The notes: generated by a model not told the origin, from the sequence alone. 64,000 nt of DNA from Candidatus Magasanikbacteria bacterium GW2011_GWA2_56_11 (GCA_001004885.1 LCRX01000002.1:14043-78042); one strand, 5' to 3'; positions 10,447 through 57,718 are shown, numbered from the stretch's first letter. Program-made: numbers and translations.

Positions 10447-10545
10447 GGGTAAGCGATGGTAATTTAATTTTTTGCCTGCGGAGTAATACCCGCTTCGCTC
10501 TCGCACTCGTCCTCGGCGAAAAATTAAATTACCATCGCTTACCTA
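10447..10545. repeat. Long inverted repeat (25-29-bp arms, 38-bp loop) between pyrC and the OTC-like gene
   Basis: gggtaagcgatggtaatttaattttttgcc … ggcgaaaaattaaattaccatcgcttaccta. Confidence 0.8.
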
Positions 10546-10582
10546 GTCGCGACCGGAGAATCCGGTGGGCGACGGTCGGATA

Positions 10583-13326: not shown

Positions 13327-14895
13327 TTATTTGTCGAGTTCGGCACGCAGGAGTTTTTCCACCACTGCCGGCTCGGCGCCGCCCTCCGTGGCTTTCATTA
13401 CCATGCCTTTGAGGAAGTGGAAAACCGGTTCTTTCCCGGCCCGGTATTGCTCTACCTGCGCGGGATAGCTATTAATGACCGCCGATATTATGGCCGCTAG
13501 AGCGACCTCGTCGTTTATTTGGCCATAGCCCTTTTCTTCCATAATATGGGTGGGATCTATATCTGTGCCGGCGGCGACCATTTCGGCCAGAATTTTGGTG
13601 GCGCCGCCCGCATTTATGCGGCCGGCGTAGAGCAGCGCCACGAGTTCGGCAAAATTTTCCGGCGAGACTTTCAGGCGGCGGATATCTTTTTTATGTTCGT
13701 GCAAAAGACCCAGGAGTTTGTTCGTGAGCCAATTGCCGGCCAGCCGGGCGATTTTTGCCTTTTTTTGTTCCTTGACGTCGCCAGTATCAGACGCGGTTTC
13801 GTCCAGGCTGCATACCCAGTCAATAATTTCAGACATCACCGCATCGGTATAGTCGGAGAGAAACTTGTCGTCGGTGAGGATTTTGGCATCGGAGTAGGAA
13901 AAGCCGTATTCTTCGCGGAAGCGGGCGCGCCGCGCCGCCGGCAGCTCTGGGAGCAGGCTGTCGCCCGCGAGCGCTAGCGGGTGGAAAGGAGGAATGTCGG
14001 GTTCCGGGAAGTACCGATAGTCGGCGGCGTTTTCTTTGGCGCGTTGGGGCAGAGTTTCGCCGGTGTCCTCGTCCCAGCCGCGCGTCTCCTGAGGCCAGCT
14101 TTCGCCGGCCCCGATCAACCGGGTTTGGCGACCGATTTCAAACTCGATGGCCCGCTCCACGGCCCGGAATGAGTTGATGTTTTTAACTTCGACCTTGTTG
14201 TTGAGGCGGCAGCCGCCGAGCGGCCGGACTGCGCCCGATGCGATTTCAAAACTGCCGGCCGCCTGAACCGAAATATTGGCTTCAACGCGCATTTGTCCTT
14301 TCTCCATATCGGCATCGCTGACGCCCAGGTAACGCAGGATGGTTTGCAGTTCCTGGGCGAAAGTTTTGGCCTCAAGCGCGGTTTTGAAATCCGGGTCGGT
14401 AACAATTTCGACGAGCGGCGCGCCGGAGCGGTTGAAATCCACGAGCGTGGCGCCGTCTTGGTCGTGGAGCAGCCGGGCGGTATCTTCTTCCAAATGCGCC
14501 CGGCGGATGCCGATCTCTGCCTCATCCCGGGTGTTCGTTTCCAGGGGGAAGGCGAGGGTTAGCGTTCCCCGTTCGGCTATCGGTTCGTCATACTGCGATA
14601 TTTGGTAGCCTTTGGGCAAGTCCGGGTAAAAGTAATGTTTGCGGTCGAATTTGGACAGCTCGCGGATAGAACATCCGAGAGCGCGGCCTACCTTGACGGC
14701 GGCGACGATGGCCGCCCGGTTCGGCACCGGAAGAGTACCCGGATGCGCCAGACAGACCGGACAAACATGGCGGTTGGGTTCGCCCGCCCCCGGGTCGTTC
14801 GAACAGGAGCAGAACATCTTGCTCTTTGTATTCAGTTCGACGTGGATTTCCAGGCCGATAATCGGCACGAGGGTAGGAATAGGGAGGTGGCTCAT
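13327..14895 (-). CDS. gatB: Asp/Glu-tRNA(Asn/Gln) amidotransferase subunit B
   Basis: IGLEIHVELNTKSKMFCSC…HVCPVCL and C-terminal GatB/YqeY domain; start at MSHLPIP. Confidence 0.9.
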   Translation of the reverse strand: MSHLPIPTLVPIIGLEIHVELNTKSKMFCSCSNDPGAGEPNRHVCPVCLAHPGTLPVPNRAAIVAAVKVGRALGCSIRELSKFDRKHYFYPDLPKGYQISQYDEPIAERGTLTLAFPLETNTRDEAEIGIRRAHLEEDTARLLHDQDGATLVDFNRSGAPLVEIVTDPDFKTALEAKTFAQELQTILRYLGVSDADMEKGQMRVEANISVQAAGSFEIASGAVRPLGGCRLNNKVEVKNINSFRAVERAIEFEIGRQTRLIGAGESWPQETRGWDEDTGETLPQRAKENAADYRYFPEPDIPPFHPLALAGDSLLPELPAARRARFREEYGFSYSDAKILTDDKFLSDYTDAVMSEIIDWVCSLDETASDTGDVKEQKKAKIARLAGNWLTNKLLGLLHEHKKDIRRLKVSPENFAELVALLYAGRINAGGATKILAEMVAAGTDIDPTHIMEEKGYGQINDEVALAAIISAVINSYPAQVEQYRAGKEPVFHFLKGMVMKATEGGAEPAVVEKLLRAELDK

Positions 14896-14969
14896 ATGCG
14901 CAGAGTTTACCACGCCGGCCGCGCTATTGAAAAGACCCTGGGCCAAGCGGCACGGGGTCTTTTTTGGTT

Positions 14970-15770
14970 TTAGGCCTGGGCAGCCTCGGCCGGTGGGGTA
15001 AAGAGCGGCGTACGTTTGAGTTCCAGGTAAAGTATGGTCGGAGCCGCGGTAAAGAGGGGCAGAAATACCAGCGAAATTATCGCGGCCAGGATGTTGAGGC
15101 CGATTAAGTTGAATTGAATGGTGCCGGACATGGAATTGCCCTGGCCTAATAAGGTGTTGACGAGAACCGAGCCGTATATCATGCCAATAAACGCCTGTAA
15201 GACCAACAAGACAGCCATGAAGGCCAGAGCCGGCGCCAAAAGGCGCCAGAGTACCGCGCCCCAGCGCCCCCTAACCAACTGTTTGCTGTAAGAGAGAGCC
15301 TGGGTACCTTTTTTATTATCGAGGATGACAGCGTGCGTGGAAAAAGCAAACCAAATAGAGAAGATAATTCCTGGTATGACGAGGAGAATAACGCCGCTAA
15401 GAATCGCGAGGACCGTCAGGATTACCACCAGGATAGCGGCGGGCATGGTCGCCAGGCCGGACGACAGCTCGGCTTTGGCGCCAAGCGGCTGGTTGTTGAG
15501 GTAGCGCGCGGCGAGGCCGCGGGTAAAGGCCAGAGAAATCCACAGCTCGGCTATGCCGAGCACAATGGCGGCCAGTACTAGCCAGACAGAACCGCCGCTG
15601 TAGCTCTCAGCTATTGACTGCTCCAAATTGTCCGGGAGCATGTAGACTTCGATGAAGCTGCTTAGGATATAGGGTACGGCCATGATACCCATGTAGGTGA
15701 GACACAGATGCCAGTTGTCGCGGTACAGGGCGATGCTCCGGCGTATGATCTCGGAAGCGGAAATTATCAT
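14970..15770 (-). CDS. Hypothetical polytopic membrane protein
   Basis: 266 aa with about 6 hydrophobic helices; no catalytic motif recognised. Confidence 0.55.
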   Translation of the reverse strand: MIISASEIIRRSIALYRDNWHLCLTYMGIMAVPYILSSFIEVYMLPDNLEQSIAESYSGGSVWLVLAAIVLGIAELWISLAFTRGLAARYLNNQPLGAKAELSSGLATMPAAILVVILTVLAILSGVILLVIPGIIFSIWFAFSTHAVILDNKKGTQALSYSKQLVRGRWGAVLWRLLAPALAFMAVLLVLQAFIGMIYGSVLVNTLLGQGNSMSGTIQFNLIGLNILAAIISLVFLPLFTAAPTILYLELKRTPLFTPPAEAAQA

Positions 15771-15794
15771 AGATAAAAAATAAAAAAAGACTAA

Positions 15795-16490
15795 TTAGGG
15801 GGTAGGGTGGGAGCGAATCTGCTCCTCGGCATAGGCAAAAATTTGGTTATGGATATCTTGTATGGCCCGCAGACGGCCGTCGGAGACGCACTCGATGACA
15901 TGGAATTGGCAGAAAAGACGGGAAATTTCCAGGTACGTGGCTTCGGCGCGGGCCAGGTGCCCCAGATCATCTTCGTGGATATCGCGGCTTTTGCCGTGCA
16001 AGTAGGCGCGGGCGTCTTTTTCGTCCACAAGTTTTTGGGAAATCTCAGGCGTAACGTGCAAGACGATGTTGACGTCCGGCTTGGGGATGCCAAATATATT
16101 ATACTCCAGATCGTATACCCAGGTAAAATAGCGGTTACGCTCCTCGGGAGTAGAGATTTTTCCACCCTGGTGGCCGAGGCTCGCACCCACGTAGCGGTTC
16201 GAGACCACAATTTTACCTTCGTCGAGCCAGCGGCGAATCGTGGTACTGGCAGCATAGCGGTCGATAGCGTAAAAAATCGAGGCGCGGTAAGGGCCGACAT
16301 CCTCAGCCGAACCGAAAGCGCCGTTCAGATAGTCCTCGACCATGGCCGCGCTGCGCTCGCCGTAGCGAGGGAAGCTAATGGTTTCAACGGCGTAGCCTGC
16401 TTGGCGCAGTCTTTCCACCAGGAGTTCGGTTTGGGTGGTTTTGCCGGAGCCGTCCGTGCCGTCGATAGTGATGAAAAATCCCTGGGGCAT
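15795..16490 (-). CDS. tmk: Thymidylate kinase
   Basis: FITIDGTDGSGKTTQ P-loop, DRY motif. Confidence 0.9.
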   Translation of the reverse strand: MPQGFFITIDGTDGSGKTTQTELLVERLRQAGYAVETISFPRYGERSAAMVEDYLNGAFGSAEDVGPYRASIFYAIDRYAASTTIRRWLDEGKIVVSNRYVGASLGHQGGKISTPEERNRYFTWVYDLEYNIFGIPKPDVNIVLHVTPEISQKLVDEKDARAYLHGKSRDIHEDDLGHLARAEATYLEISRLFCQFHVIECVSDGRLRAIQDIHNQIFAYAEEQIRSHPTP

Positions 16491-29335: not shown

Positions 29336-29490
29336 GGACTCACAGCGAGTTCCCCCCTTTCGCCTCAAACATAGACTGATTTTCACGGCACCAAAACTCG
29401 CTCTTACAGGCTCAGACATTGGTGCGGCTAAAATCAGTCTATGTTTCGGCTCAACTTAGGATAGAATTGCTAACAAGTCACCATCAGTTC
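29336..29490 (+). repeat. Family-A structured repeat, copy 3
   Basis: ggactcacagcgagtt…aaacatagactgattttcacggc…ggctaaaatcagtctatgttt…caccatcagttc. Confidence 0.85.
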
Positions 29491-43074: not shown

Positions 43075-46000
43075 ATGAGCCGTCCGCGCCGAACAATTTT
43101 TCATCGTTTGACCGCCTGGCTCGTGCTGTTGACCACCCTGTGGTATTTCACTTTGGGCTTGCTTCCTTTTGGCCTCACCGACCCCACAGTACCGATAGCC
43201 AAAGCCGCCGCTGTTACCTGGGTGGGGCTAGCCACGGGCAACTGGGAAGACGGGGCGAATTGGAACACCGGCGTGGTCCCGACGGCAAGTGACGATGTTA
43301 CGATATCGAGCAGCACCGGCAATATTTCCGTTACTCTTTCCGCCGGCCAGACAGCTAATTTCGCTTCGCTGACTATTGGCGGGGATTCGACTTATTATGT
43401 TACCACGACGCTCGTCGGCAATATCGGAACCGCCGTGAGCAGCACGATCGCCGGCCGGGGAGTTTTGGTTCAGAAAAATGCCGTCGTCCAGACGCTAACA
43501 GGGGATTTGACTATCCAAAGCGGAGGGATTTTGACGCATGAGGCGAACACGACGGCGCAGTCGTACGAGGTAGATTGGAGCGTGGCTAATTTGAATGTTC
43601 AGGCCGGAGGTAAAATTGATGTTGACGGCCAGGGATATACCGGGACAAATGATACCGGCTCATCCGGCAATGGTCCGGGTGGCGGTTACAAATCTGTCAG
43701 CCTCGGCACCGGCGGCGCTCACGCGGGCAACGGCGGCGGACCATCAAACAGCGAAGACGGGCCAGCCGGGTACTGCGATATCACTAATCCAGTCTCCATG
43801 GGTTCGGGCGGCGGCGTTGGCGGCTCCGGATTCGGCGGTTCGGGCGGCGGCGTGATTATTCTCAACGTTTCCGGGACAATCACCGTTAACGGGACGATTA
43901 CCGCCGACGGCGCAACTCCCATTTCCGGTACCAGCGTTGGTGGCGGCGCCGGCGGCGGCGTAAAGATCGTGGCTGGTGACATTGCCGGCACCCCGCAAAG
44001 TTTCACGATTACCGGAGGTGGCGGCCGAAGCACTTATGGCGGCGGCGGGGGCGGAGGTTGCGCCTTTCTGTCTTACACTACTGCCAATAGTATTTTCCCG
44101 ACCAGCACTATTACGATGAATGGCGGCGCCGGCGTATCGGGACAGCGCGGCGGCGGCGGCGTAGTGTATGTAAAACAGACCGGCACCAATGGCGATATTT
44201 ATTCGGTCAATACTGCGCCGGGAGCTCCTTCTGCCCAGGGGGCCACCTCCATCACGGCCGATTCCTTGACGGTGATGGTTTCCTCAACTTACCAGATTGC
44301 CTCGGGCAAAACTTTGGTGCTTAAAAATAGCAGCCCTTTTTCCGGCGGAGACGCATCGGGTACTCTGCGGGTAGATAGCGGCGGTACGTTCACTCCCACG
44401 TCAACCGCCGATTTTACCGTTGCCAGTACCACTCTGGAGATTCACCAGGGTTCTACTGTTACCTCGGCCTCTTCTCTTAACGTGGTTGTTGACTATGGGG
44501 GTGTCCTCAGCCAAGGACGGTATGTGACAACCAGCCCTGCTTTGGGATTGAATACTCTTTATATATTAAACGGCGGTGTTCTCACCCATGCAGCCAATAC
44601 GACGACGCAGAGCCACGTGGTAAATTTGAGCGCGGCTTCTTCTACCGTGGCGGCCGGCGGATTTATTAACCTGGACGGCAGGGGATACGCCGGAGTCAGC
44701 GGCGGAAACGGCAACGGACCGGGCGGCGGCGCGGTAAAAGTATCCAGCACCGGCGGCGGCGGCGGCGCCCATGCCGGCGCCGGCGGAAACGGTTTTAACG
44801 GTTCGGCTGGCGGCGCGGCCTACTGCGTTACAAGTTCTCCGGGTACGATTGGGTCGAGCGGCGGCTATGGCGGAAACGGCGCCAGTCCTGCCGGCGGAGG
44901 CCTGGCCGTGTTAGCTATTACTAATACGCTTACCGTAAATGGTACTATCACGGCGGATGGTGGCGCCGCGCCCGGATCTCAGTCGACTGGTTCTGGCGGC
45001 GGCGGCGTAAAAATCACTGCCGGTGTTATCGCCGGTTCGCCGCAGAGTTTCACCGCTACCGGATCGGCCGGCAGGGGTTCGAGCGGCGGCGGAGGCGGTG
45101 GCTGTATTTATATTGGTTACTCAACCAGCAACAGTATCTCATCCGCGACCGTGTCCGGCGGTGCCGCCGGCGGCAGCGGCGGCTCCACCGCCGGAGGCTC
45201 CGGTGAGTTTAATGCCGCGCAGACCAACCGCGCGCCATCGGCTCCGGCCACTCTCTACGCCCATGCTACCGACGCCCAGTCCGGTACTGCCAACCCGAGC
45301 TGGGTTAGCAGTATTACGCCGGCATTTTCTGCTATTTATGCCGACGACGATGTGGGCGACATCGCGAATAAAGCTCGCATACAAATAGGCACTGACTCTA
45401 ACTTCAGTTCCATTACGCACTGGGATTCCGGGTCATCCGGCACTTCTATCAGCAACTGCACTGCCGGACAGCGCTGTCAAAATATCGTCTACGGTTCTTT
45501 TGGGTCCGCGCCTACCCAGAACTTGGCTCTTAACGATGATGCCGACGAGGCCAGCCAGACGACTTACTACTGGCGCATTAAATTTTTTGACGATAGCAGC
45601 ACCGAGGGCGCTTTCTCCGCCGAGTCGGCGTCGTTTACTTTGCTCGACGCGCCCAATGAACCGACCAATTTGGCCACCTCCTCCCTTAGTATCACAGGTG
45701 TTACCTTGTCCTGGACAGATAATTCGTCACTCGAAAACAACTACGTTTTGCAGGTTTCCGAGGACGGCGGGGGCACTTATTCGACCGCTTCGACCACCGT
45801 GGCCAACACCACGTCCGTGACTACCAGCACACTGTCGGCCGATACCCGCTATGTTTATCGCGTACACGGAGCCAACACGGCCGGCGACTCCGATGCCATC
45901 GCCACAGCGGCTTTTTACACTTTGGCCAATGCGCCGGGAACACCGACGCCGGGTACGGTTACTGCCGCCACAATCCCTATTACCATCTCCGTAAACGGCA

Positions 46001-49000
46001 ACCCCACGAATACCCTGTACGCCGTCTTTGATACCATCTCTGACACTTACGTGGGAGCCGACGGCTCGGCTTCGGCCGGGCCGGTATTCCAAACTACGTC
46101 TACCTGGGGCAACAATTTTGCCCGCAGCGGGCTTACCCCCAACACCCAACATGCGTTCGCCGTGGTTGCGCGCAACGGAGACGGCGTAAGCACGGCTACC
46201 TCCACGGCCAGCGCCGCCGTCTACACACTGGCCGCCACTCCGTCGTCGGCGAGCGCCAGCGCCGACAGCGCCAGCCAGATCACGGTTTCCTGGAACGCCA
46301 ACTCCAACGCGCCGGGTACTAGCTATTACGCGGAGGATGCCGGTTCGCCGACGCGCGCTTCGGGCTGGATTACCGCCACCTCATACACATTTAGCGGGTT
46401 GAGCGCCGGTACAGCCTATACGTTTCGGGTCAAGGCGCGTAATGACGAGGGCACGCAAACAGATTTTGGTTCATCGGTAACGGCGACTACTTTGCCGTCC
46501 GGCGGATCTCCTTCTCCCACTCCTCCGGCACCGCCGCCGCCGCCATCGCCGACCCCCTATATTTCGGCAGAAGAAATAATCGAGTTTGCCCCTACCGGGC
46601 TCATTAAAATTATTTCTGTTTCCGGCGAAACCGAAGTTGATGTCCTTGACGGAGCGGGCATAGCGGCGCCCCATGTCGTGAATGGTTATAGCCAGGTGAA
46701 AGGCGTGTCCAGTGATGACGGTATCCTCGACCTGTCATCTCCATTTAGCCTGGATTTTTCTTTTGCCCTCGACAAGACGCCCCTTGATTCAAGTCTGGCC
46801 GGGAAAAAGCGCCGGTTGTTTTCGAAGTACGACGCCTACAATGCCGGGTACAGCACGAATAACGATATCGCGGCCACGAAAGGATTTTGTTTCAGCGCCG
46901 GCACCGGGCAGGTCTGCGATTACCGCAATCCGTTCGTGAAGAGTACCTATGTTTATAATATTGTCTGGTCAGGCAGCACTCTCGATCTCATCGAGAATAA
47001 TAAAAAATTGGATAGCGCCCCGCTGGCGGCTATCCCCAAGAGCCAGCACCCTTTGGCTATTGGCGGTGAATTAGTCCCGTACCAAAATGGCAAGTACGCC
47101 ACTTCGTTTTATCCGTTCACTCTTTATACGCTGCGCCTGAAACAAGATCCCGGACTGCTTATCTACACCAACACGCCCGTAGTCAAGCTTAAAATAGATG
47201 CCACGTATGCGCAGCAGCTGGCCCTAAAGGAGAGCCATGGCTCTCCGTACACCGATTTTTCGGAAGTGTCGTTCAACCCGGTGGTTTCCGAGCTCACTTG
47301 GCAGCTGGCCGGAGAGGACGGTAAAAAATGCGTTAATGCCCGGTTTAAGGGAATTGAAGGCAAAAACCTTACGTATGATACCTATGCTTGCGTCATTCTG
47401 GATCGTGTCAAGCCTTCCGCCGACTTTTTGATCGACGCCGGGCCGGCCAATCCAACGGCCGCCGCCCCGCGCATTTACGGCGTAAGCGAACCCAAGGCCG
47501 TGATTGTCATCACCAAAAAGAGCAAACAAGCCGCGGCCGCTTTGGCCTCAGCGGCGGAAAAGGCGACTTTTCATCTCGCGGCTGAACCGGCAGCCTATAC
47601 CACCATGGCCGATAACACCGGTGCTTGGAGTTACACCTTTTCCGCCCCGTTTAACCCCGGCGACCATATTATTACTGTTCAGGCCACTGATCCGGCCGGC
47701 AATACCTCGGACCCGGTGAGTCAAGAGCTGTCCGTAACTACGCCTCTCCCGTCCGAACCGGATCCGGAGGACACTAAACCCGATGAAATCGAAGATAAAA
47801 AAGAAGACACTAAACCGTCTGACCAAGACCAAGAAGACACTAAAACCGATGAGACTGAGAAGGGAGATGAGGTAAAAAAGGACGATACGGCGGTGGCCGA
47901 TGCCGAAGAAGAAAAGACGACCAACCCTGACCAGGCGGACCAGCCGGTACTGAGTCTGCCAGGAGAAGCCGGGCCGGGTTTGGCACCAATCGCCCGGCGA
48001 CCGGATCGGGCGGCTGGCAAGGAGGAGTTGGCACCGATGGCAGAGGTGCCAGAATCGGAACAAGCCGCGGCCGCGGCCGAAATGATCGCTCCTGCATTTG
48101 GCCCCTCCCTTTTGTCTCAGGTATGGAATAAGTGGCGCGCGCTGAAAGATAATCCCTTTCTCGAGAAAATCAACGAAACGGCCGCGGCCCCGGCCATCGC
48201 CCTCTTGGGTGCTGCCAATCTGGCTGTTGGCGTTCAAATTCCGCGTCTTTTAGCCCTGCTGCGGTATCTGTTCAGCCAGCCGGCGCTCCTTTTGCGCCGA
48301 CGCAAGTACAAAGGCTGGGGCACGGTCTACAATGCCTACAGCAAGCTGCCCGTGGATCTGGCCACGATTCGTCTCATCAGCGATGAAACAAATAAAGTGG
48401 TTAGCTCCCAGGTAACGGATTTTTACGGCCGCTATTTTATCTCGGCGGAAAACGGCCGTTTTCGCCTGGAGGTCATTAAACCAGGATTCACGGGTTTCAG
48501 CGCGCTGTTGAGGGAACAGACCGAGGACGCCAAGTACCTCAATCTGTACCACGGAGAGGCTTTTTATCCGCCGGAGTCCGGGAGCGCCGTTACCTACAGT
48601 ATCCCGCTCGATCCGGAGACGATCATCAAGCCCACGACCCAGATTCTCAAAGACCATTCCCGGTCGGTGTTGCAACAGGCGTTTACTTTGGTGGGATTGG
48701 GCGCCAGTTTGGTCTCGTTTGCCGTCTCACCCACTCCAGGCGTGGGGTTTCTCGTGGGGCTGCATGTCATTTTTTACTTTTTATTCCATCGTCTGGCGCA
48801 CCGTCGGCTTCCCAGTTCCTGGGGCGTAGTCCGCGATCTGAAGGACAAATCAACGCTGTCGAGAGTGGTTATCCGCGTCTTTGACGCCGCTTACAATAAA
48901 TTGGTCAATACCGCTGTTACCGACAGCCGCGGCCGTTATGCCGTGCTGGTCGGGCCAAGCCGGTATTACGTCATGTACGAAAAAGACGGCTACCACCGGA

Positions 49001-49137
49001 AGCAGTCGCCGACTTTGGACTTTAGCTCAGAAAAGACCGGCGGCCTGGGCGGTATCATCAACCGGTCGGAGATGATGGAAAGGGGGACAGGCTCTCCGGC
49101 GGCGTCGGAATCCGGCGGACCGAATCCAGGGCTTTGA
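43075..49137 (+). CDS. Giant (2020-aa) membrane-anchored surface protein: N-terminal signal/TM, duplicated Gly-rich beta-helix-like module, FN3 domains, Pro-rich and acidic repeat linkers, C-terminal TM segments and two CarboxypepD_reg-like beta-sandwich domains
   Basis: Single uninterrupted ORF; GNWEDGANWNTGVVP…; two ~300-aa paralogous Gly-rich modules; FN3-like LSITGVTLSWTDNS…YVYRVHGAN; PPAPPPPPSP; EDTKPDEIEDKKEDTKPSDQDQEDTK; VVSSQVTDFYGRYFISAENGRFRLEV and RVFDAAYNKLVNTAVTDSRGRYAV. Confidence 0.8.
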   Translation: MSRPRRTIFHRLTAWLVLLTTLWYFTLGLLPFGLTDPTVPIAKAAAVTWVGLATGNWEDGANWNTGVVPTASDDVTISSSTGNISVTLSAGQTANFASLTIGGDSTYYVTTTLVGNIGTAVSSTIAGRGVLVQKNAVVQTLTGDLTIQSGGILTHEANTTAQSYEVDWSVANLNVQAGGKIDVDGQGYTGTNDTGSSGNGPGGGYKSVSLGTGGAHAGNGGGPSNSEDGPAGYCDITNPVSMGSGGGVGGSGFGGSGGGVIILNVSGTITVNGTITADGATPISGTSVGGGAGGGVKIVAGDIAGTPQSFTITGGGGRSTYGGGGGGGCAFLSYTTANSIFPTSTITMNGGAGVSGQRGGGGVVYVKQTGTNGDIYSVNTAPGAPSAQGATSITADSLTVMVSSTYQIASGKTLVLKNSSPFSGGDASGTLRVDSGGTFTPTSTADFTVASTTLEIHQGSTVTSASSLNVVVDYGGVLSQGRYVTTSPALGLNTLYILNGGVLTHAANTTTQSHVVNLSAASSTVAAGGFINLDGRGYAGVSGGNGNGPGGGAVKVSSTGGGGGAHAGAGGNGFNGSAGGAAYCVTSSPGTIGSSGGYGGNGASPAGGGLAVLAITNTLTVNGTITADGGAAPGSQSTGSGGGGVKITAGVIAGSPQSFTATGSAGRGSSGGGGGGCIYIGYSTSNSISSATVSGGAAGGSGGSTAGGSGEFNAAQTNRAPSAPATLYAHATDAQSGTANPSWVSSITPAFSAIYADDDVGDIANKARIQIGTDSNFSSITHWDSGSSGTSISNCTAGQRCQNIVYGSFGSAPTQNLALNDDADEASQTTYYWRIKFFDDSSTEGAFSAESASFTLLDAPNEPTNLATSSLSITGVTLSWTDNSSLENNYVLQVSEDGGGTYSTASTTVANTTSVTTSTLSADTRYVYRVHGANTAGDSDAIATAAFYTLANAPGTPTPGTVTAATIPITISVNGNPTNTLYAVFDTISDTYVGADGSASAGPVFQTTSTWGNNFARSGLTPNTQHAFAVVARNGDGVSTATSTASAAVYTLAATPSSASASADSASQITVSWNANSNAPGTSYYAEDAGSPTRASGWITATSYTFSGLSAGTAYTFRVKARNDEGTQTDFGSSVTATTLPSGGSPSPTPPAPPPPPSPTPYISAEEIIEFAPTGLIKIISVSGETEVDVLDGAGIAAPHVVNGYSQVKGVSSDDGILDLSSPFSLDFSFALDKTPLDSSLAGKKRRLFSKYDAYNAGYSTNNDIAATKGFCFSAGTGQVCDYRNPFVKSTYVYNIVWSGSTLDLIENNKKLDSAPLAAIPKSQHPLAIGGELVPYQNGKYATSFYPFTLYTLRLKQDPGLLIYTNTPVVKLKIDATYAQQLALKESHGSPYTDFSEVSFNPVVSELTWQLAGEDGKKCVNARFKGIEGKNLTYDTYACVILDRVKPSADFLIDAGPANPTAAAPRIYGVSEPKAVIVITKKSKQAAAALASAAEKATFHLAAEPAAYTTMADNTGAWSYTFSAPFNPGDHIITVQATDPAGNTSDPVSQELSVTTPLPSEPDPEDTKPDEIEDKKEDTKPSDQDQEDTKTDETEKGDEVKKDDTAVADAEEEKTTNPDQADQPVLSLPGEAGPGLAPIARRPDRAAGKEELAPMAEVPESEQAAAAAEMIAPAFGPSLLSQVWNKWRALKDNPFLEKINETAAAPAIALLGAANLAVGVQIPRLLALLRYLFSQPALLLRRRKYKGWGTVYNAYSKLPVDLATIRLISDETNKVVSSQVTDFYGRYFISAENGRFRLEVIKPGFTGFSALLREQTEDAKYLNLYHGEAFYPPESGSAVTYSIPLDPETIIKPTTQILKDHSRSVLQQAFTLVGLGASLVSFAVSPTPGVGFLVGLHVIFYFLFHRLAHRRLPSSWGVVRDLKDKSTLSRVVIRVFDAAYNKLVNTAVTDSRGRYAVLVGPSRYYVMYEKDGYHRKQSPTLDFSSEKTGGLGGIINRSEMMERGTGSPAASESGGPNPGL

Positions 49138-49169
49138 TGTTGAGACTATCCGGCGTAGTCTGTTATACT

Positions 49170-49330
49170 AGAACCCACTCCCAAAAATAATTCCGGCTCA
49201 ATTTTGCGCCTGTACCGCTGGCAATTGTCCGGCTGGCGTGGCCATAGCACCGCTATATCTCCTCAACCCGAACAATTTTCGTTTGAAACACGACAAAATT
49301 GCCTCGGAATTATTTTTGGGAGTGGGTTCT
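49170..49330 (+). repeat. Family-B TIR element, copy 1 (perfect 26-bp terminal inverted repeats)
   Basis: agaacccactcccaaaaataattccg … cggaattatttttgggagtgggttct; immediately upstream of gap; TATACT hexamer abuts the left end. Confidence 0.85.
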
Positions 49331-49356
49331 AAATTATCCGCTTTTAATTTCCTTTT

Positions 49357-50367
49357 ATGCTGCGTGTCGCTATCAACGGATTTGGCCGGATCGGCCGGCA
49401 TGCCTTTAAAGTCGCCTGGAGCAAGAAGGGGATGCAGATCGTGGCCATCAACGATTTGACTGCCCCGGCGACACTGGCTTACCTGCTCAAGCATGATACG
49501 GCCTATCCGGACGTGCCGTACCCGGTGAGCTCTGACGACAAGAATCTTATCGTGGCCGGTCGGAAAATTCCGGTGTTTGCCGAAAAAGACCCCGGCCTGC
49601 TACCCTGGAAAAAACTCAGAGTTGACGTGGTCATCGAGTCCACCGGCAAGTTCACCAAGCAGGAGGGCGCCGAACTCCACCTTAAGGCCGGCGCCAAAAA
49701 GGTCGTTATCTCGGCCCCGAGCAAGGGCGGCGGGATTGTTACCTATGTCCGGGGCGTGAACGACCGGGCATACGCCGGCGAGGCGCTTCTCGACAATGCC
49801 TCGTGCACCACCAACTGCGCGGCGCCGGTTATGCTGGTGCTCGAGCGCGAATTCGGCATCGAAAAAGCCATGCTTACGACCGTGCACTCTTACACGGCCA
49901 CGCAGGCGCTCCAGGACGGGCCGGCCAAGGATTTGCGCGAGTCGCGCGCGGCGGCCGAAAATATGGTGCCGACCACTACCGGCGCGGCCATTGCCACGGC
50001 CCGGGTCATTCCGTCCTTGGCGGGCAAATTCGACGGCCTGTCGGTGCGCGTGCCGACGATTACCGTGTCGCTTACCGACATTACGGCGCTCTTGAAGCGT
50101 TCGGTGACGAAAGAAGACGTAAACCAGGCGTTGCGGAAGGCTGCCCGGAGCTATCTCAAAAATATATTAACGACCACGGAAGAAGAGCTGGTCTCGTCCG
50201 ATTTTATCGGCAACCCATATTCGGCAATAGCGGACTTGAAGTTGACTGCCGTAGTTGACGGCAACCTGGTGAAGGTCATCGCCTGGTACGATAACGAATG
50301 GGGGTATGCCAATCGGCTCGTGGAGATGGTGGCAGTGGCCGGGAAGCACAAAGGCCAGAAGAAGTAA
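49357..50367 (+). CDS. gap: Glyceraldehyde-3-phosphate dehydrogenase
   Basis: INGFGRIGR, SCTTNCAAP active-site Cys. Confidence 0.95.
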   Translation: MLRVAINGFGRIGRHAFKVAWSKKGMQIVAINDLTAPATLAYLLKHDTAYPDVPYPVSSDDKNLIVAGRKIPVFAEKDPGLLPWKKLRVDVVIESTGKFTKQEGAELHLKAGAKKVVISAPSKGGGIVTYVRGVNDRAYAGEALLDNASCTTNCAAPVMLVLEREFGIEKAMLTTVHSYTATQALQDGPAKDLRESRAAAENMVPTTTGAAIATARVIPSLAGKFDGLSVRVPTITVSLTDITALLKRSVTKEDVNQALRKAARSYLKNILTTTEEELVSSDFIGNPYSAIADLKLTAVVDGNLVKVIAWYDNEWGYANRLVEMVAVAGKHKGQKK

Positions 50368-50371
50368 TTTT

Positions 50372-51574
50372 ATGGATTATAGCGCCGTCCGGTCGATCAA
50401 ACAGGCACGTCGTCTCGCAGGCAAACGCGTGCTTTTGCGCGTGGATTTTAACGTCCCGCTTGATGGCCGGAGAGTAGCCGATGACACGCGCCTCAGGGAG
50501 GCGTTGCCTACCCTCCAATATCTCGCAAAAAACAAAGCTAGAATCATCATTGTTACCCACCTGGGCCGGCCAGAAGGCCGGCGGGCGGCCGAGTACAAGC
50601 TGGATCCGGTGGCCAAGCGCTTGGCAGAGCTTTGGAAAAGGAAAGTCGCCAAGCTGCCGGATATTACCGGGCCGAAAGTCGAGCGGGGCATACGAGCGTT
50701 GCGGCCCGGACAGGCGCTTATGCTCGAAAATATCCGGTTTTCCCCCGACGAGAGCGGCAACCGCGGTACTCTCGGCCGCGAACTGGCCGCGCTCTCTGAT
50801 ATCTTTGTGCAGGACGGCTTTGCCGTGTCGCACCGCGGCGACGCTTCCGTGGTCGGCGTGGCCCGGTACTTGCCGTCATATTCCGGGCTGCTGCTCGATA
50901 GAGAAATCAAGGGCCTGGCGAAAGTAGTGGACAAACCGGTTTCTCCGTTTGTACTCGTGTTGGGCGGGGCCAAAATGGAGACCAAGGTGCCGGTAATGAA
51001 AAATCTTCTGCCCCGGGCCGATTTTGTCCTGGTCGGCGGCGGCATTGTTAACACTTACCTGCATGCCCTGGGATACGCGGTCGGCCAGTCTTTGATTGAT
51101 CCGGGACAGGCAGCGGAAGCGGACAAATATGTCGGGCGCAGAAAAGTCATTAAACCTGTGGACGTCGTGGTAGGATCCCGTGACGGCGCTAACTACCGAG
51201 TGGTGAAGCTAGAGCGCCGGCCGCATGCCGTGTGTAAAAAAAATGAGGCTATTTTGGATATCGGTCCCGCCACTATCCGCCTATTCGCCGGGTACATCAA
51301 ACAGGCGCGGACGCTGGTTTGGAACGGCGCCATGGGCTATTTTGAACAGAAGCCCTACGATGTCGGGACATTGTCTATCGCTCGGCTCGTAGCCGCCCGG
51401 TCGAAAGGCCCGGCTTTCGGAGTTATTGGCGGCGGCGAGACCGTTTTAGCTATGGACCGCGTCGGCATGGGGGAAAATATTGATTTGATCTCCACCGGTG
51501 GCGGGGCTATGCTGGAATTTCTTTCCGGCCGCGAACTCCCGGGTATTGCCGCGCTCGTGCGGAAACGTTCTTAG
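50372..51574 (+). CDS. pgk: Phosphoglycerate kinase
   Basis: VLLRVDFNVPL, hinge and ATP-binding motifs; start at MDYSAV. Confidence 0.95.
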   Translation: MDYSAVRSIKQARRLAGKRVLLRVDFNVPLDGRRVADDTRLREALPTLQYLAKNKARIIIVTHLGRPEGRRAAEYKLDPVAKRLAELWKRKVAKLPDITGPKVERGIRALRPGQALMLENIRFSPDESGNRGTLGRELAALSDIFVQDGFAVSHRGDASVVGVARYLPSYSGLLLDREIKGLAKVVDKPVSPFVLVLGGAKMETKVPVMKNLLPRADFVLVGGGIVNTYLHALGYAVGQSLIDPGQAAEADKYVGRRKVIKPVDVVVGSRDGANYRVVKLERRPHAVCKKNEAILDIGPATIRLFAGYIKQARTLVWNGAMGYFEQKPYDVGTLSIARLVAARSKGPAFGVIGGGETVLAMDRVGMGENIDLISTGGGAMLEFLSGRELPGIAALVRKRS

Positions 51575-51597
51575 TGTGCTATACTGCTTCTGTGAAT

Positions 51598-51753
51598 GAA
51601 CTCACAGCGAGTTTCCCCACTTTTGCCTCAAACATAGACTGATTTTCGCGGCCCCAAAACTCGCTCTTACAGGCTCAGACATTGGCGCCGCGAAAATCAG
51701 TCTATGTTTCGGCTCAACTTAGGAGAGAATTGCTGATAACTCACTATCAGTTT
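51598..51753 (+). repeat. Family-A structured repeat, copy 4
   Basis: gaactcacagcgagttt…aaacatagactgattttcgcggc…gccgcgaaaatcagtctatgttt…cttaggagagaattgctga…; preceded by TGcTATACT extended -10. Confidence 0.85.
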
Positions 51754-51830
51754 AGTCGGTATTAGACACTAGCCGATTAGCGCTCGGTCCTGTTTTGCGG
51801 GATCGGACGTTAATCAGTTAATGTTCTTCT

Positions 51831-54013
<2,183 letters not shown>

Positions 54014-54138
54014 GCCAAACCGGCGCCAGGGTTGGGGCCGCGCGGCTGGTTTTTGCGTTTGGGTCATTTTCGACTGTCGCCGCCTGGCGGTCCCCGGTTG
54101 TTTTTTTTCGTCCTTTGCTCTATAATAGCGGGTACTAT

Positions 54139-54289
54139 GAACTCACAGCGAGCCCCCCTTCGCCGAAACATAGACTGATTTTCGCGGCCCCAAAACTCGC
54201 TCTTACAGGCTCAGACATTGGTGCCGCGAAAATCAGTCTATGTTTCGGCTCGACTTAGGATAGAATTGCTGATAACTCACTGCCAGTTC
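54139..54289 (+). repeat. Family-A structured repeat, copy 5 (ends 2 nt before the gpmI ATG)
   Basis: gaactcacagcgag…aaacatagactgattttcgcggc cccaaaactcgctcttacaggctcagacattggtg ccgcgaaaatcagtctatgttt…aactcactgccagttc; preceded by TTGTTT-17-TATAAT. Confidence 0.85.
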
Positions 54290-54290
54290 T

Positions 54291-55865
54291 ATGGCTGCAC
54301 ACCCGCAGGGACAAGTACAGCGCATCCGTCCGACTCTTCTTATCATTCTCGATGGCTTCGGTTTAGCCCCGGCCGAGAATCCGGGCAACGCCATCACTCC
54401 CCAAACCGCGCCCCATATTTTTGGCTGCCTGGAGCGCTATCCGTCTACCATCCTCAAAGCCCACGGTCGCGATGTCGGGCTGTTTGCGTCGCAGGAGGGC
54501 AATTCCGAGGCCGGACACTTCAATATCGGCGCCGGCCGGGTGGTGGAACAGGATTTGGTCCGGATTTCCCGGGCCATCAAAGATGGAACTTTTTTCAAGA
54601 ATGAGGCTTTCGCGCAAGCGGTTTATCACGTCGAAAAATATCAGGCGGCGGTCCATGTGATGGGGCTGTTGAGCGGCGGGCAAAGCGCGCACGCTCACCC
54701 GAAGCACCTATACGCCCTTCTGGAATATTTGCGTCGTCAGAAAGTAAAAAAAATCTATTTGCATCTGTTTACCGACGGGCGCGATTCGCCGCCGCATGCG
54801 GCCATCCGGCATCTGCGCGAGCTGCGCAAAGAGATGAAAAACGGCGAGCGTATCGCCACCATTATGGGACGATTCTACGCCATGGACCGCAATAAGTCCT
54901 GGGAGCGCACCGGGCGGGCGTATGCCGCCATGGTACACGGTAAGGGAGAATGCGGGTCTGCGAGCGCCGAAGAGGCGCTGTCGCAGGCGTACAACCGGGG
55001 CGAAACTGACGAATACGTGTTGCCGACGATCGTGTGCGAGAACGGTCAAGGGAGCGCCACAATCCAGGATAATGACGCGATATTTTTTTTCAATGCCCGC
55101 AGCGACCGCGCGCGCCAGATTACCAAGGCCTTCGTCCAGCCTGATTTTGCGAAAAAAAATCCCGGCGCTTTCCGCCGGGAGCGTTGCCCCAAAAACATCC
55201 GTTTTGTGGCCATGACCGACTTTGGACCGGATTTGCCCGGAATTTTCACCGCTTTTCCGAGTCCCGACGTACCGCTGAGTTTGGCCCGGGCAATCGGCGA
55301 GAATTACCGACAGCTGTATATATCGGAAACGGAAAAATACGCTCACGTAACTTATTTTATCAACGGCGGGGACGCCGAGCCGATAAACGGCGAAGCGCGG
55401 GAACTCGTGCGTTCGTCCGGCCATTACTCTTACGCGGCGGCGCCGGAAATGAGCGCGGTGGAATTGACCGCCAGAATCGTCCGGTATCTGCAAGACGGCG
55501 TTTACGATTTTATCACGGTGAATTTTCCCAATGCCGACATGGTCGGGCACACAGGCGACTGGCAGGCAGCCAAACGCGCTGTCCGGGCGGTCGACCGGGC
55601 GGTCCGGCGGCTCACGGACGCGGTGCTCAAATTGAAGGGCCAGGCCGTAATTACCGCCGATCATGGCAATGCCGAAGAAATGATCAACTCCCAAACCGCA
55701 GAGATAATGACCGAGCACACCCGGAATCCCGTGCCGTTTATCGTGGTCCGCCGGAATTTCGCGGCCAAGCTTCGCCCTGGCCGGCTCGCCGACGTGGCGC
55801 CGACGCTGCTTAAGCTCATGGGGGTGGATAAGCCAAAAGAGATGACCGGAAAAGCGTTATTTTAG
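54291..55865 (+). CDS. gpmI: 2,3-bisphosphoglycerate-independent phosphoglycerate mutase (paralogue 1)
   Basis: LIILDGFGLAP, GNSEAGHFNIGAGR (Ser nucleophile retained), DGRDSPP, TADHGN. Confidence 0.88.
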   Translation: MAAHPQGQVQRIRPTLLIILDGFGLAPAENPGNAITPQTAPHIFGCLERYPSTILKAHGRDVGLFASQEGNSEAGHFNIGAGRVVEQDLVRISRAIKDGTFFKNEAFAQAVYHVEKYQAAVHVMGLLSGGQSAHAHPKHLYALLEYLRRQKVKKIYLHLFTDGRDSPPHAAIRHLRELRKEMKNGERIATIMGRFYAMDRNKSWERTGRAYAAMVHGKGECGSASAEEALSQAYNRGETDEYVLPTIVCENGQGSATIQDNDAIFFFNARSDRARQITKAFVQPDFAKKNPGAFRRERCPKNIRFVAMTDFGPDLPGIFTAFPSPDVPLSLARAIGENYRQLYISETEKYAHVTYFINGGDAEPINGEARELVRSSGHYSYAAAPEMSAVELTARIVRYLQDGVYDFITVNFPNADMVGHTGDWQAAKRAVRAVDRAVRRLTDAVLKLKGQAVITADHGNAEEMINSQTAEIMTEHTRNPVPFIVVRRNFAAKLRPGRLADVAPTLLKLMGVDKPKEMTGKALF

Positions 55866-55942
55866 GCGGGGTTTTAACAGTCCCAAGCCGTCGAGCGCGC
55901 CTGGGCAACTCGTAACTCTGACAGCAAAATTTCTCAACTGCT

Positions 55943-57520
55943 ATGTCCCGACCAAAACCATTAGTCCTGGCTATTCTTGACGGCTGGGGAGTCGCCCCGG
56001 AGCACGAGGGCAACGCCATCACCCGGGCCAAGTTGCCGAATTTTGCCCGGTTTATCAAAGATTACCCGGCCATGACTCTTTACGCTTCGGGCACCGAGGT
56101 CGGCTTGTCGTTCGGCGAGATGGGTAATTCCGAAGTCGGCCACTTGAATATCGGCGCCGGACGCGTCTACTACCAGACTTTTCCGCGTATCAATAAATGC
56201 CTGGGGGACGGATCTTTTTTTACCAATAAGGCCTTTTTGTCCGCGGCTGAACACGCGCGGAAGAACAAGTCCGCTTTGCACCTTATCGGTCTGGTCAGCC
56301 CTGGCAATGTCCATGCCAGCGATACGCATCTTTTCGGACTGCTGGAATTTTGCAAACAGCAGAAGTTGAAACAGGTGGCGGTGCACGCTATTTTGGACGG
56401 CCGCGACACGATTTACAACAGCGGCGCGGATTTCATCAAGAAATTGCAGGCGAAAATAAAAGACATCGGCGTGGGCAAAATCGCTTCGCTCTGCGGGAGG
56501 TTCTACGCCATGGACCGCGACAACCGGTGGGACCGGATTGAAAAAGCCTACCGCGCCATGGCGGACGGAGTGGCGGCCGAGTATTTTAAAGATCCGGTCA
56601 AAGCCATTGAGTCCTCGTACGCCAAAGAAATTTATGATGAAGAATTCGTCCCGGTGGTGATAGGCAAAGAAGGCGAGCCGGCGGCCAAGGTGGAGGCCGG
56701 AGACGCCGTCATTTTTTTCAACTTCCGTCCGGATCGCGCGCGCCAGCTCACGCAGGCTTTCGTCCTGCCGAGTTTCGCCAAATTCGACCGGCCGTATATC
56801 AAGGAGCTGCGCTTTGTTACCATGACCGAGTACGAAAAAGAAACGCCGGTGGTCGTCGCCTTTTCGCCGAACGTGGTCGTCAACTGTCTGTCCGAGGCCG
56901 TAAGCCAGGCCGGACTCAGACAGTTTCATATCGCGGAGACCGAAAAATACGCGCATATCACGTTTTTTTTAAACGGCACGATTGAGGATCCGTTTCCGAA
57001 CGAAGAACGCGCCATTATACCTTCGCCAAAAGTTTCTTCTTACGACCAGGCGCCGGAGATGTCGGCCGCGGAGATAACCAGAGAAGTGGTAAAGGCGGTG
57101 GATGAAGAGAAATACGATGTCATAATGCTGAACCTGGCTAATGCCGACATGGTCGGACACACCGGTAACCTTAGGGCGACTGTCAAAGGCGCGGAGGCCG
57201 TAGACAAGAGTCTCGGGCAAATTGCCGAGCACGTGCTGGCCAAAGGCGGAGTCCTGCTTATTACCGCCGATCACGGCAATGGCGAGGAGGTAATTAATCT
57301 TCAAACAGGAGAAAAGGACAAAGAGCACAGCACAAACCCGGTGCCGTTTTTGGTGATCGCCGAGGCGTACCGCGGACAAACGGGCCCGTCCGGCGACCCG
57401 CCTAACGGAGACCTGAGTTTGCTGCACCCGGTCGGCATGCTGGCCGACGTGGCGCCGACGGCGCTCAGCCTGCTTGGCATTCCCCAGCCGCCAGAGATGA
57501 CCGGGCGGGCTTTGATGTAA
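55943..57520 (+). CDS. gpmI: 2,3-bisphosphoglycerate-independent phosphoglycerate mutase (paralogue 2, more canonical)
   Basis: LAILDGWGVAP, GNSEVGHLNIGAGR, DGRDT, TADHGN. Confidence 0.92.
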   Translation: MSRPKPLVLAILDGWGVAPEHEGNAITRAKLPNFARFIKDYPAMTLYASGTEVGLSFGEMGNSEVGHLNIGAGRVYYQTFPRINKCLGDGSFFTNKAFLSAAEHARKNKSALHLIGLVSPGNVHASDTHLFGLLEFCKQQKLKQVAVHAILDGRDTIYNSGADFIKKLQAKIKDIGVGKIASLCGRFYAMDRDNRWDRIEKAYRAMADGVAAEYFKDPVKAIESSYAKEIYDEEFVPVVIGKEGEPAAKVEAGDAVIFFNFRPDRARQLTQAFVLPSFAKFDRPYIKELRFVTMTEYEKETPVVVAFSPNVVVNCLSEAVSQAGLRQFHIAETEKYAHITFFLNGTIEDPFPNEERAIIPSPKVSSYDQAPEMSAAEITREVVKAVDEEKYDVIMLNLANADMVGHTGNLRATVKGAEAVDKSLGQIAEHVLAKGGVLLITADHGNGEEVINLQTGEKDKEHSTNPVPFLVIAEAYRGQTGPSGDPPNGDLSLLHPVGMLADVAPTALSLLGIPQPPEMTGRALM

Positions 57521-57522
57521 CT

Positions 57523-57682
57523 AGAACCTACTCCCGAAAATAATTCCGAGACAATTTTGTGCCTGTTTCGAGCGAAAATTGTCGGGTTGAGCAGGCTAGT
57601 GGTACTATGGCGACGAGAGCCGGACAATTTGCAGCCGAAGCAGGCCAAAATTGAGCCGGAAGTTATTTTTGGGAGTAGGTTC
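57523..57682 (-). repeat. Family-B TIR element, copy 2, inverted relative to copy 1
   Basis: agaacctactcccgaaaataattccgag … ccggaagttatttttgggagtaggttc; full length aligns to the reverse complement of the 49170-49330 copy. Confidence 0.85.
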
Positions 57683-57694
57683 AAGACGTTCATA

Positions 57695-57718
57695 AATCCC
57701 CGCTCGAGCGGGGATTTA
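57695..57718 (-). terminator. Hairpin overlapping the nrnA stop codon
   Basis: aaatccccgctcgagcggggattt. Confidence 0.5.

Follow-up and report, generated by a model that had tools for sequence, protein, structure and literature searches.

A non-autonomous MITE family very probably accounts for the inverted repeats that flank a glycolytic gene block in Candidatus Magasanikbacteria

The window, a 64-kb stretch of Candidatus Magasanikbacteria DNA, carries a glycolytic block that is bordered on each side by one copy of a short repeat, here called family B (Table 1). Pfam confirmed the gene names gap, pgk, SIMPL, eno, and twice gpmI that had been proposed for the block, and the two elements of a different repeat family, family A (repeat family D1, with five window copies), that were said to lie inside it were found. 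The original prediction, that an element with terminal inverted repeats (TIRs) occurs in opposite orientation at both block borders, was borne out. Copy 2 aligned to copy 1 with 84.4% identity over 167 columns when inverted (E 2.7e-42) and with 70.7% identity in direct orientation, within a point or two of the 85 to 90% estimated for a reverse complement. Spacing was also as described, with 26 nt between copy 1 and the gap ATG (49357) and 2 nt between the gpmI-2 stop codon (57518-57520) and base 57523. The perfect 26-bp TIRs attributed to both copies, however, are a property of copy 1 only. There, positions 49170-49195 and 49305-49330 pair over 26 nt with 0 mismatches (0 matches expected from 100 shuffles), and end complementarity reaches 38 nt at 92%. 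The TIRs of copy 2 (57523-57682) are imperfect, with an indel in the right arm and, relative to the TIR of copy 1, 2 mismatches in the left. Nine copies of the family align almost without variation over the first ~25 nt, and the ends read GAACCYACTCCC. The 159-nt body stays below the limit of ~300 bp that characterizes bacterial MITEs and is too short for a transposase, and family B is without coding capacity; ORFs that overlap the elements are short, extend into the flanks, and differ between copies.

Table 1. Coordinates of the glycolytic block, its repeats, and the adjoining sites, counted from the first base of the window
Feature	Position	Strand	Remarks
Promoter match, sigma-70-like, TTGAGA-18-TG-n-TATACT	49140..49169	+	Abuts copy 1; 10/12 consensus, extended TG
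TA left of copy 1	49169..49170	.	Putative target duplication copy; comprises the final base of the -10-like hexamer and the next base
Family-B copy 1	49171..49329	+	159-nt body GAACCC...GGGTTC; spacer between giant fn3 gene and gap
TA right of copy 1	49330..49331	.	Putative second target duplication copy
Flanks of copy 1			...GTTATAC-TA on left; TA-AATTATCC... on right
Ancestral glycolytic block	49357..57520	+	Pfam, gene calls, same order in Magasanikbacteria relatives
gap	49357-50367	+	Pfam
pgk	50372-51574	+	Pfam
Family-A element	51613..51752	.	pgk-SIMPL spacer; different repeat family from B
SIMPL	51831-52688	+	Pfam
eno	52754-54013	+	Pfam
Family-A element	54149..54288	.	eno-gpmI-1 spacer; different repeat family from B
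gpmI-1	54291-55865	+	Pfam
gpmI-2	55943-57520	+	Pfam
TA flanking copy 2, gpmI-2 side	57522..57523	.	Putative target duplication; partner 57683-57684 now AA
Family-B copy 2	57524..57682	-	159-nt body; inverted relative to copy 1; between gpmI-2 stop codon and native terminator hairpin
Flanks of copy 2			...GTAAC-TA on gpmI-2 side; AGACG... on far side
Native GC-rich hairpin AAATCCCCGCTCGAGCGGGGATTT	57694..57717	.	Between convergent gpmI-2 and DHH genes; outside the element

Both copies are predicted to fold as one long hairpin across the whole element, with free energies in the range of -72 to -88 kcal/mol and z scores of -9.6 to -13 (copy 1, -74 kcal/mol and z of -9.7; copy 2, -88 kcal/mol and z of -13). 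The complementary segments that had been described as internal palindromes exist, but folding indicated that they are not separate and that all belong to the single hairpin. Changes on both sides of the stem that preserve pairing numbered 6 pairs compared to 2.4 +/- 1.0 in shuffles, a count that kinship of the copies can inflate, and in the 70%-diverged variant L025a the inner arms are different yet still complementary. Kept pairing is not required of a purely selfish element, and thus some constraint on family-B structure may exist. One strand folds better in every copy, but a strand-specific RNA function was rejected, as the copies are oriented both ways relative to neighboring genes, and the asymmetry is inherited and gives no evidence of function. 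An intrinsic terminator was also rejected because neither hairpin is followed by a run of U residues.

Transcription of family B, as originally suggested, is plausible. A central promoter (TGGTACTAT on one strand of copy 2) was considered and discarded: copy 1 has TGCTAT at this place and L025a has TGGTAT, and by our reading of the alignment a hexamer that varies between subfamilies (TACTAT/TGCTAT/TGGTAT) is not a conserved -10 box. Outside the element, the promoter-like sequence that abuts copy 1 was recognized by consensus, and its function is putative. If it is functional, gap mRNA would start inside copy 1, and the hairpin would be its 5' leader. On the far side of the block, the native hairpin beyond copy 2 is probably a bidirectional terminator, and the only Rfam model that it resembles is RsmY, at the terminator end and with a score under the gathering cutoff. 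The window was without Rfam matches at the gathering score, and neither element had an Rfam match at an E value of 1 or below. Weak matches near copy 2 lay, entirely or for the most part, in its 3' flank and in the adjacent terminator hairpin.

Family B is not restricted to the glycolytic block. A 20-nt TIR pattern recovered copies, whether full, truncated, or variant, from 11 more metagenome loci representing 8 distinct sites, and a profile search of these loci added one decayed copy and one solo TIR. Family B is thereby present at at least 10 distinct sites besides the window in the same Rifle-aquifer population of Candidatus Magasanikbacteria (CPR), and this dispersal contradicts a particular association with the block. 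The loci share a G+C content of 54 to 56%, family A is also present in L029, and the gene block of the window recurs on a 62-kb contig of metagenome Ga0208246, the source also of L021, L028, and L031; from these three observations, we conclude that the loci come from the same population. Neighbors of the copies include DnaK, RNase J, YibE/F, GH113, PGI, GSDH, RseP, LemA, a glycosyltransferase, and transaldolase. All copies are found at gene borders. In two cases the element completes a TAG stop codon with its G, one copy reaches 57 nt into the 3' end of dnaK, L025a lies 20 nt before the pgi start codon with a decayed copy behind pgi, and one lies downstream of the transaldolase gene. Families A and B together contribute 7 MITE copies, or ~1 kb, to the window. 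Among GTDB-representative contigs, the TIR pattern gave 6 single matches, none of which continued into an element and which we attribute to chance; thus, the source species is apparently not among the representatives. Viral contigs searched with two patterns and a plasmid BLAST search yielded no family-B member.

The block keeps its place in relatives without the elements. In GCA_001784325.1 (L033), L034, L035, and ERZ27296333, the gene order is S2, tsf, the giant fn3 gene, gap, pgk, SIMPL, eno, gpmI, gpmI, DHH, and valS. In these relatives, 15 nt separate the giant gene from gap, and gpmI-2 and DHH overlap in ERZ27296333. A profile search of L033 to L037 gave no family-B match, and the elements are absent from the orthologous spacers of relatives, although the nearest relatives without an element have only ~75% GAPDH identity and their spacers are too diverged for base-by-base alignment. 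SIMPL had been taken for an inserted gene, but it lies between pgk and eno in every relative examined and is not a recent insertion. Because order and chromosomal place are the same where the elements are missing, we conclude that the block, including SIMPL, is ancestral and did not move, contrary to the mobility that had been suggested.

The two copies differ in age. Copy 2 belongs to a young subfamily, with 94 to 97% identity to L019, L020, L021/L025b, L028, and L029, while copy 1 is 81 to 85% identical to other main-family copies and 68% identical to the L025a variant. On these identities, copy 1 is an old, diverged variant and copy 2 a recent one. Moreover, L036 (82% GAPDH identity) has at the orthologous site a 60-nt palindrome that resembles the right arm of copy 1 and its flank, with a score of 27 compared to 14.4 +/- 2.2 (0 of 2,000 shuffles). 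The nearest relative thus seems to retain a remnant of copy 1 at the corresponding position, and if so, copy 1 predates the young subfamily. Insertion polymorphism was not seen in the population for either copy, as every contig reaching the sites has the element. The 195-nt spacer containing copy 2 is identical in all four of the population contigs that cover it, and no inversion was found in contigs reaching the spacers, where the arrangement is uniform.

How family B is mobilized is suggested by its flanks. Complete copies read Y-TA-[GAACC...GGTTC]-TA-R; of the nine, six are flanked by TA at each end and three have a single TA, the other one being mutated, and a cTAg target may be read at six sites. 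The G and C next to TA are invariant, while copy 1, L016, L028, and L025a have outer bases that do not match between the left and right flanks. An invariant inner G/C combined with discordant outer bases argues for a 2-bp TA duplication rather than a 4-bp CTAG duplication, and the IS5-type 4-bp alternative was rejected because of those four copies. IS5-derived MITEs with 4-bp CTAG/YTAA duplications, such as MITEPsy1 of Pseudomonas syringae, share with several family-B copies a CTAG at both junctions (PMC3189936), but they differ in that the outer bases of the tetranucleotide vary in the same four copies of family B while the inner G/C is invariant. The flanks point to duplication of a TA target with a preference for CTAG, although the CTAG could, in principle, belong to the TIR and not to the target. 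TA duplication and CTAG preference are documented for IS630 (PMC2170065), and the pattern of ends and target suggests that an IS630/Tc1-mariner-type transposase mobilizes family B. A scan of 29 window ORFs and of 18 ORFs flanking other copies revealed no transposase, and no autonomous insertion sequence with matching ends was seen in the scanned window ORFs or the retrieved loci. The lack of a transposase among the window ORFs is consistent with a non-autonomous element.

Non-autonomous elements with similar features are known from other bacteria. The cyanobacterial Nezha element is an IS630-derived MITE. General MITE traits, and the relationship of RUP to IS630-Spn1, have been described (PMC2229807). 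Correia/NEMIS elements of Neisseria resemble family B in size (107 to 155 bp, versus 159 bp), in TIRs of ~24 to 26 bp, in TA at the termini and as target duplication (putative for family B), in a long stem-loop transcript (likewise putative for family B), and in a location at gene borders with occasional ORF fusion (PMC2229807). The two are not known to be related in sequence, however, and one is from Betaproteobacteria, the other from CPR. Known features of Correia further include promoter activity, an IHF site, and processing by RNase III. Like family B, RUP of Streptococcus pneumoniae is non-coding, bounded by TIRs, and associated with a TA target, and for both, mobilization is attributed by inference to an IS630-family transposase (PMC2229807, PMC2170065). 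The attribution is based on TIR similarity to IS630-Spn1 for RUP and on the TA/CTAG pattern for family B.

Two inverted copies exactly at the outer borders of a gene block invite the reading that they are the ends of an 8.5-kb mobile element carrying glycolytic genes, in line with the composite-transposon-like arrangement raised in the original prediction. Composite transposons (IS-cargo-IS) likewise have a gene block between two repeat copies, and IS630-associated examples are known (cited in PMC2170065). In the window, however, the repeats are non-autonomous, differ from each other by 16%, and come from different age classes, the remnant in L036 suggests that copy 1 predates the subfamily to which copy 2 belongs, and the cargo occupies its ancestral position, between the giant fn3 gene and DHH/valS, in four relatives. 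With the family also at at least 10 unrelated sites, we consider a composite transposon extremely improbable. Alternatively, the inverted copies might serve as a recombination substrate that inverts the 8.3-kb block, either as a switch or as a source of rearrangement. The repeats are ~160 nt long and 8.2 kb apart, and elsewhere in the population sequence context changes inside a family-B copy (L017 versus L019) and at a family-A copy (scaffold L064, exactly at the 54149..54288 element). In metagenome assemblies, however, a change of context at a repeat may reflect misassembly, and at 84% identity with short longest identical runs the copies are a poor substrate for homologous recombination. 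Every contig reaching the spacers has the same orientation, which relatives share, and the recombination-prone arrangement that had been proposed is very improbable.

Exaptation deserves more weight. Copies of MITE origin, chiefly copy 1, might be retained for a hairpin function in cis, as an mRNA 5' leader, 3' stabilizer, processing site, or protein-binding site of highly expressed central-carbon genes. Copy 1 sits between a promoter-like site and the start of gap, the pgi copy is similarly placed, the copy-1-like palindrome is at the same site in L036, compensatory changes exceed those in shuffles, and, of 12 family-B sites, 5 are next to genes of glycolysis or the pentose-phosphate pathway. 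This enrichment was noted post hoc, however, and 2 of those five sites are the window copies themselves. Moreover, copy orientation relative to neighboring genes is mixed, unrelated genes are also flanked by copies, the glycerate kinase and PEP-utilizing enzyme genes of the window have none, no Rfam family matches, a terminator role lacks the U-run, and covariation is subject to the inflation noted above. Thus, retention for a cis-acting structure seems unlikely, and it is a little more doubtful still that this CPR lineage has domesticated old copies to serve as hairpins in the leaders or trailers of highly expressed central-carbon genes. If domestication were true, the gap copy would have been retained from a time before the nearest relative diverged, and the bracketing of glycolytic genes would reflect selection for mRNA-end structures, not chance.

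We conclude that family B is very probably a non-autonomous MITE, that its two window copies are independent insertions, and that the block was neither delivered nor moved by them. In its host, the Candidatus Magasanikbacteria (CPR/Patescibacteria) population of the Rifle aquifer, a DDE transposase of the IS630/Tc1-mariner type would mobilize the family in trans, cutting at the GAACC...GGTTC ends and inserting into TA, preferably within YTAR/CTAG, with duplication of the TA. The window copies would have inserted at different times. Copy 1, the old one, would have entered a TA at the downstream end of the -10 box before gap and probably turned into part of the gap 5' leader, and copy 2, the recent one, would have entered a TA beyond gpmI-2, 2 nt from the stop codon and before the native terminator; effects on transcripts are presumptive. 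Only insertions outside coding sequence would survive selection. The copies lie exactly at gene borders, probably because TA-rich sites in a genome of 57% G+C concentrate at stop codons, -10 boxes, and spacers and because selection leaves only non-coding insertions.

The analysis removes an attractive but wrong reading, and the glycolytic cluster of this CPR bacterium is not a mobile island. A full-text literature search found no paper describing MITEs in CPR/Patescibacteria. Metagenome assembly is affected by such repeats, as contigs end or change context at them. Copy 1 offers a testable case of a MITE between a candidate promoter and the housekeeping gene gap. The small, streamlined genome of a patescibacterium carries at least two MITE families that are active or were recently active.

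Two family-B elements bracket the glycolytic block in inverted orientation, as the original prediction held, and the block contains everything listed for it: gap, pgk, a SIMPL-domain gene, eno, two gpmI paralogues, and, as a separate kind of repeat, two family-A elements. Copy 2, on the gpmI side, matches copy 1, on the gap side, at 84.4% identity when inverted (E 2.7e-42) versus 70.7% in direct orientation. The perfect 26-nt terminal inverted repeats (TIRs) ascribed to the family are found in copy 1 (zero matches in shuffles), where arm complementarity reaches 38 nt at 92%, but the TIRs of copy 2 are imperfect. Either copy folds into a single full-length hairpin (dG -72 to -88 kcal/mol, z -9.6 to -13), and thus the further internal palindromes that had been noted are pieces of that one structure.

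Such bracketing had been likened to a composite transposon, and the SIMPL gene had been thought inserted into the block. Four relatives (GAPDH, 75-77%), however, share the order S2, tsf, giant fn3 gene, gap, pgk, SIMPL, eno, gpmI, gpmI, DHH (opposite strand), and valS. Thus, the block, SIMPL included, is ancestral and in place. Moreover, a family-B profile search of relatives L033 to L037 gave zero hits. The giant gene lies 15 nt from gap in L033 and L035, the spacer between the second gpmI gene (gpmI-2) and DHH is 119 nt of AT-rich, unrelated sequence in L033, and DHH overlaps gpmI-2 in ERZ27296333; the corresponding window spacers of 219 nt and 195 nt owe their length to the family-B insertions. 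Other lineages placed other insertions in the block spacers: the eno/gpmI spacer of the window contains a family-A element and that of L033 an AbiEii-family gene with a second gene of unknown function, and L035 has additional open reading frames (ORFs) after gap and after gpmI-2. The spacers are simply permissive. We note that the tandem gpmI paralogues and the SIMPL gene between pgk and eno, kept in the Magasanikbacteria relatives L033, L035, and ERZ27296333, form an unusual but stable layout.

The copies also differ in age. Copy 2 and the elements of loci L019, L020, L028, and L029 are 94 to 97% identical to one another, and the L016 element shares about 88% identity with this group. For copy 1, identity to the main-family copies is 81 to 85%, and the values are 81 to 82% for L015 and 66 to 72% for the L025a variant. 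Thus, the two window copies were not inserted together, and with the block ancestral in place we reject a composite transposon. In the closest relative, L036 (GAPDH, 82% identity), the interval from the upstream gene to gap holds a 60-nt palindrome (AGAACCTATCTTAAAATTG...CATTTTTGAAATAGGTTTC) at the place taken by copy 1 in the window. When its right half and the adjoining 7 nt of flank are compared with the right arm and flank of copy 1, the alignment scores 27 (shuffles, 14.4 +/- 2.2; 0/2,000), and on that one 42-column alignment the palindrome is probably an internally deleted orthologue of copy 1. Read in this way, copy 1 would predate the split from L036.

Was the arrangement prone to recombination, as was also proposed? 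All population contigs that reach the two sites carry both elements in one arrangement, with no empty site or inversion among them. Contig ends and changes of context do occur at repeats, and one contig (L038) begins at copy 1. L017 and L019 are identical over 3,772 nt up to family-B position 114 and then fully divergent, in that a complete element is present in one contig, and in the other a 1,067-aa ORF without a Pfam match follows a truncated element. Such changes may reflect genuine rearrangement or errors of assembly. Likewise, scaffold L064, in which the cysS region is joined to window position 54137 onward at the family-A copy preceding gpmI-1, replacing eno, reflects either rearrangement at a repeat or a scaffolding error. 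Separately, the giant fn3/Big_13 protein has internal repeats of ~1,047 nt, and a population contig with a different upstream neighbour (TrmB) encodes a 1,261-aa version, indicating strain-level length variation.

Family B is dispersed. A 20-nt TIR pattern, run against one genome per species, gave six matches, all by chance, and in metagenomes it gave 20 loci, 11 of which hold real elements; merging loci shown to be the same site left eight sites beyond the window, with varied neighbouring genes. Searching with a profile brought in two more, a decayed copy and a solo TIR. The window GAPDH protein is encoded identically on Rifle groundwater metagenome contigs (PRJNA268031, JGI samples), and its closest named homologues are from Candidatus Magasanikbacteria (CPR/Patescibacteria; 72 to 76% identity). 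The family-B loci and the window come from the same population, as G+C is 54 to 56% at the other loci (56.6% in the window), L029 also carries family A, and a 62-kb contig bearing the window gene block belongs to metagenome Ga0208246, the source of L021, L028, and L031. Of 12 family-B sites, 5 are next to gap, gpmI, pgi (twice), or transaldolase, a category chosen post hoc in which two of the five are the window copies themselves. The pgi gene is flanked by two inverted copies, one after its stop and one before its start, in a layout like that of gap...gpmI. The window genes for glycerate kinase and a PEP-utilising enzyme are without a family-B copy, and an association with carbon metabolism is improbable.

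Positions of family-B elements, other repeats, and related features
Sequence	Position	Feature
Window	49170-49195, 49305-49330	Family-B copy 1, left and right TIRs
Window	57523-57682	Family-B copy 2
Window	2482-2621, 7560-7699, 29350-29489	Family A, ~140 nt, nested 28-32-nt inverted repeats
Window	51613-51752, 54149-54288	Family A (same structure), inside glycolytic block
Window	10445-10546	Palindrome, ~100 nt; 32-nt arms, 94% complementary, 38 nt apart
Window	43075-49137	Giant fn3/Big_13 protein, 2,020 aa
Window	49129-49140, 57507-57518	12-mer GGGCTTTGATGT, + strand
Window	54291-57520	Tandem gpmI paralogues
Window	57694-57717	Hairpin AAATCCCCGCTCGAGCGGGGATTT
L012	1-1156	1,261-aa version of giant protein
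L015	4181-4237	dnaK ORF reaches 57 nt into family-B copy; final 18 codons and stop element-encoded
L015	11355-11399	Solo family-B TIR
L016		Copy 183 nt downstream of transaldolase gene
L017 / L019	7011-7124 / 3659-3822	Copy flanked by two ORFs without Pfam match
L020		Copy 1 nt past RNase J stop
L021 = L025b		Copy provides G of YibE/F gene's TAG stop
L025a = L031	L025 6217-6380	Variant copy; provides stop of GSDH-like gene, ends 20 nt before pgi
L025	4571-4744	Decayed copy, 138 nt downstream of pgi
L028		Copy amid divergent RseP and LemA genes
L029		Glycosyltransferase gene begins 14 nt downstream of copy
L033 (GCA_001784325.1)	14582-15884	AbiEii-family gene and second gene
L036	229-300	Palindrome at the site corresponding to copy 1
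L064	1-1120	cysS region joined to window sequence

What moves family B is suggested by its ends. Aligned copies with flanks read Y-TA-GAACC...GGTTC-TA-R, in which the element's first G and last C, each bordering a TA, are invariant and the outer bases are discordant in copy 1 (c/a), L016 (t/g), L028 (t/g), and L025a (t/a). As outer bases vary between left and right while the inner G and C do not, the flanks fit a 2-bp TA duplication with preference for palindromic YTAR (CTAG at six sites) and do not fit the 4-bp CTAG duplication of IS5 type seen in MITEPsy1 (PMC3189936). TA duplication is a hallmark of IS630/Tc1-mariner transposition, and CTAG is preferred by IS630 itself (PMC2170065 and references therein). 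CTAG is five-fold underrepresented in the window (50 observed versus 240 expected). Like Correia and RUP, family B has the bacterial MITE traits of small size, TIRs, TA termini, and a long stem-loop (PMC2229807).

Conservation of the hairpin has more than one possible source. Pairing holds in 94% of cells across nine distinct copies, pairs changed on both sides number 6 versus 2.4 +/- 1.0 in shuffles (0/500), a statistic that related sequences can affect, and the inner arms of the L025a variant differ in sequence with complementarity kept. Pairing may be conserved because both ends are fitted to one transposase, because of the way palindromic MITEs originate, or because the hairpin itself is constrained. 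The same strand folds better in all copies, but orientation relative to genes is mixed, and thus the better-folding strand is no sign of a strand-specific role.

We inferred the preinsertion sites by removing copy 1 with one TA and by removing copy 2. Without copy 1, the sequence reads TTGAGA-18-TG-n-TATACT, then 27 nt, then the gap ATG, and the region, with 10 of 12 consensus positions matched, would have been a compact putative promoter and leader. Insertion of copy 1 at the TA on the 3' boundary of the -10 box would have recreated it, such that gap transcripts would now have their start within the left TIR and include the hairpin. Without copy 2, the gpmI-2 TAA stop is followed by 12 nt and a hairpin whose sole resemblance is to the terminator end of the RsmY model; the gpmI-2 C terminus is intact (525 aa), as in relatives. 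At two loci outside the window a TAG stop gets its G from the first base of the element, indicating that TA at stop codons is tolerated as a target, and copies therefore seem to abut genes "exactly." A 12-mer also lies just upstream of both copies and spans the preceding gene's end both times. If 26 nt are omitted from the copy 1 flank, both flanks are nearly identical up to the element, a likeness unlikely by chance (about 1e-4 by our estimate).

Other repeats share the window. The five family-A copies in 64 kb neighbour MiaB-like, pyrimidine synthesis, gyrB-side, and glycolytic genes, and their ends (GAACTCAC...) resemble those of family B (GAACCYAC...); judged by these ends, the families might use related transposases. 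A separate palindrome, with an aspartate/ornithine carbamoyltransferase gene on one side and an amidohydrolase gene on the other, may be a member of a third family or a regulatory hairpin.

Family B is very probably a MITE, and we moderately favor its mobilization by an IS630-type transposase at TA targets. The bracketing of the glycolytic block arose when two insertions, unrelated to each other, entered permissive border spacers. Ultimately, what this CPR lineage carries is a new family of an ordinary type of element.
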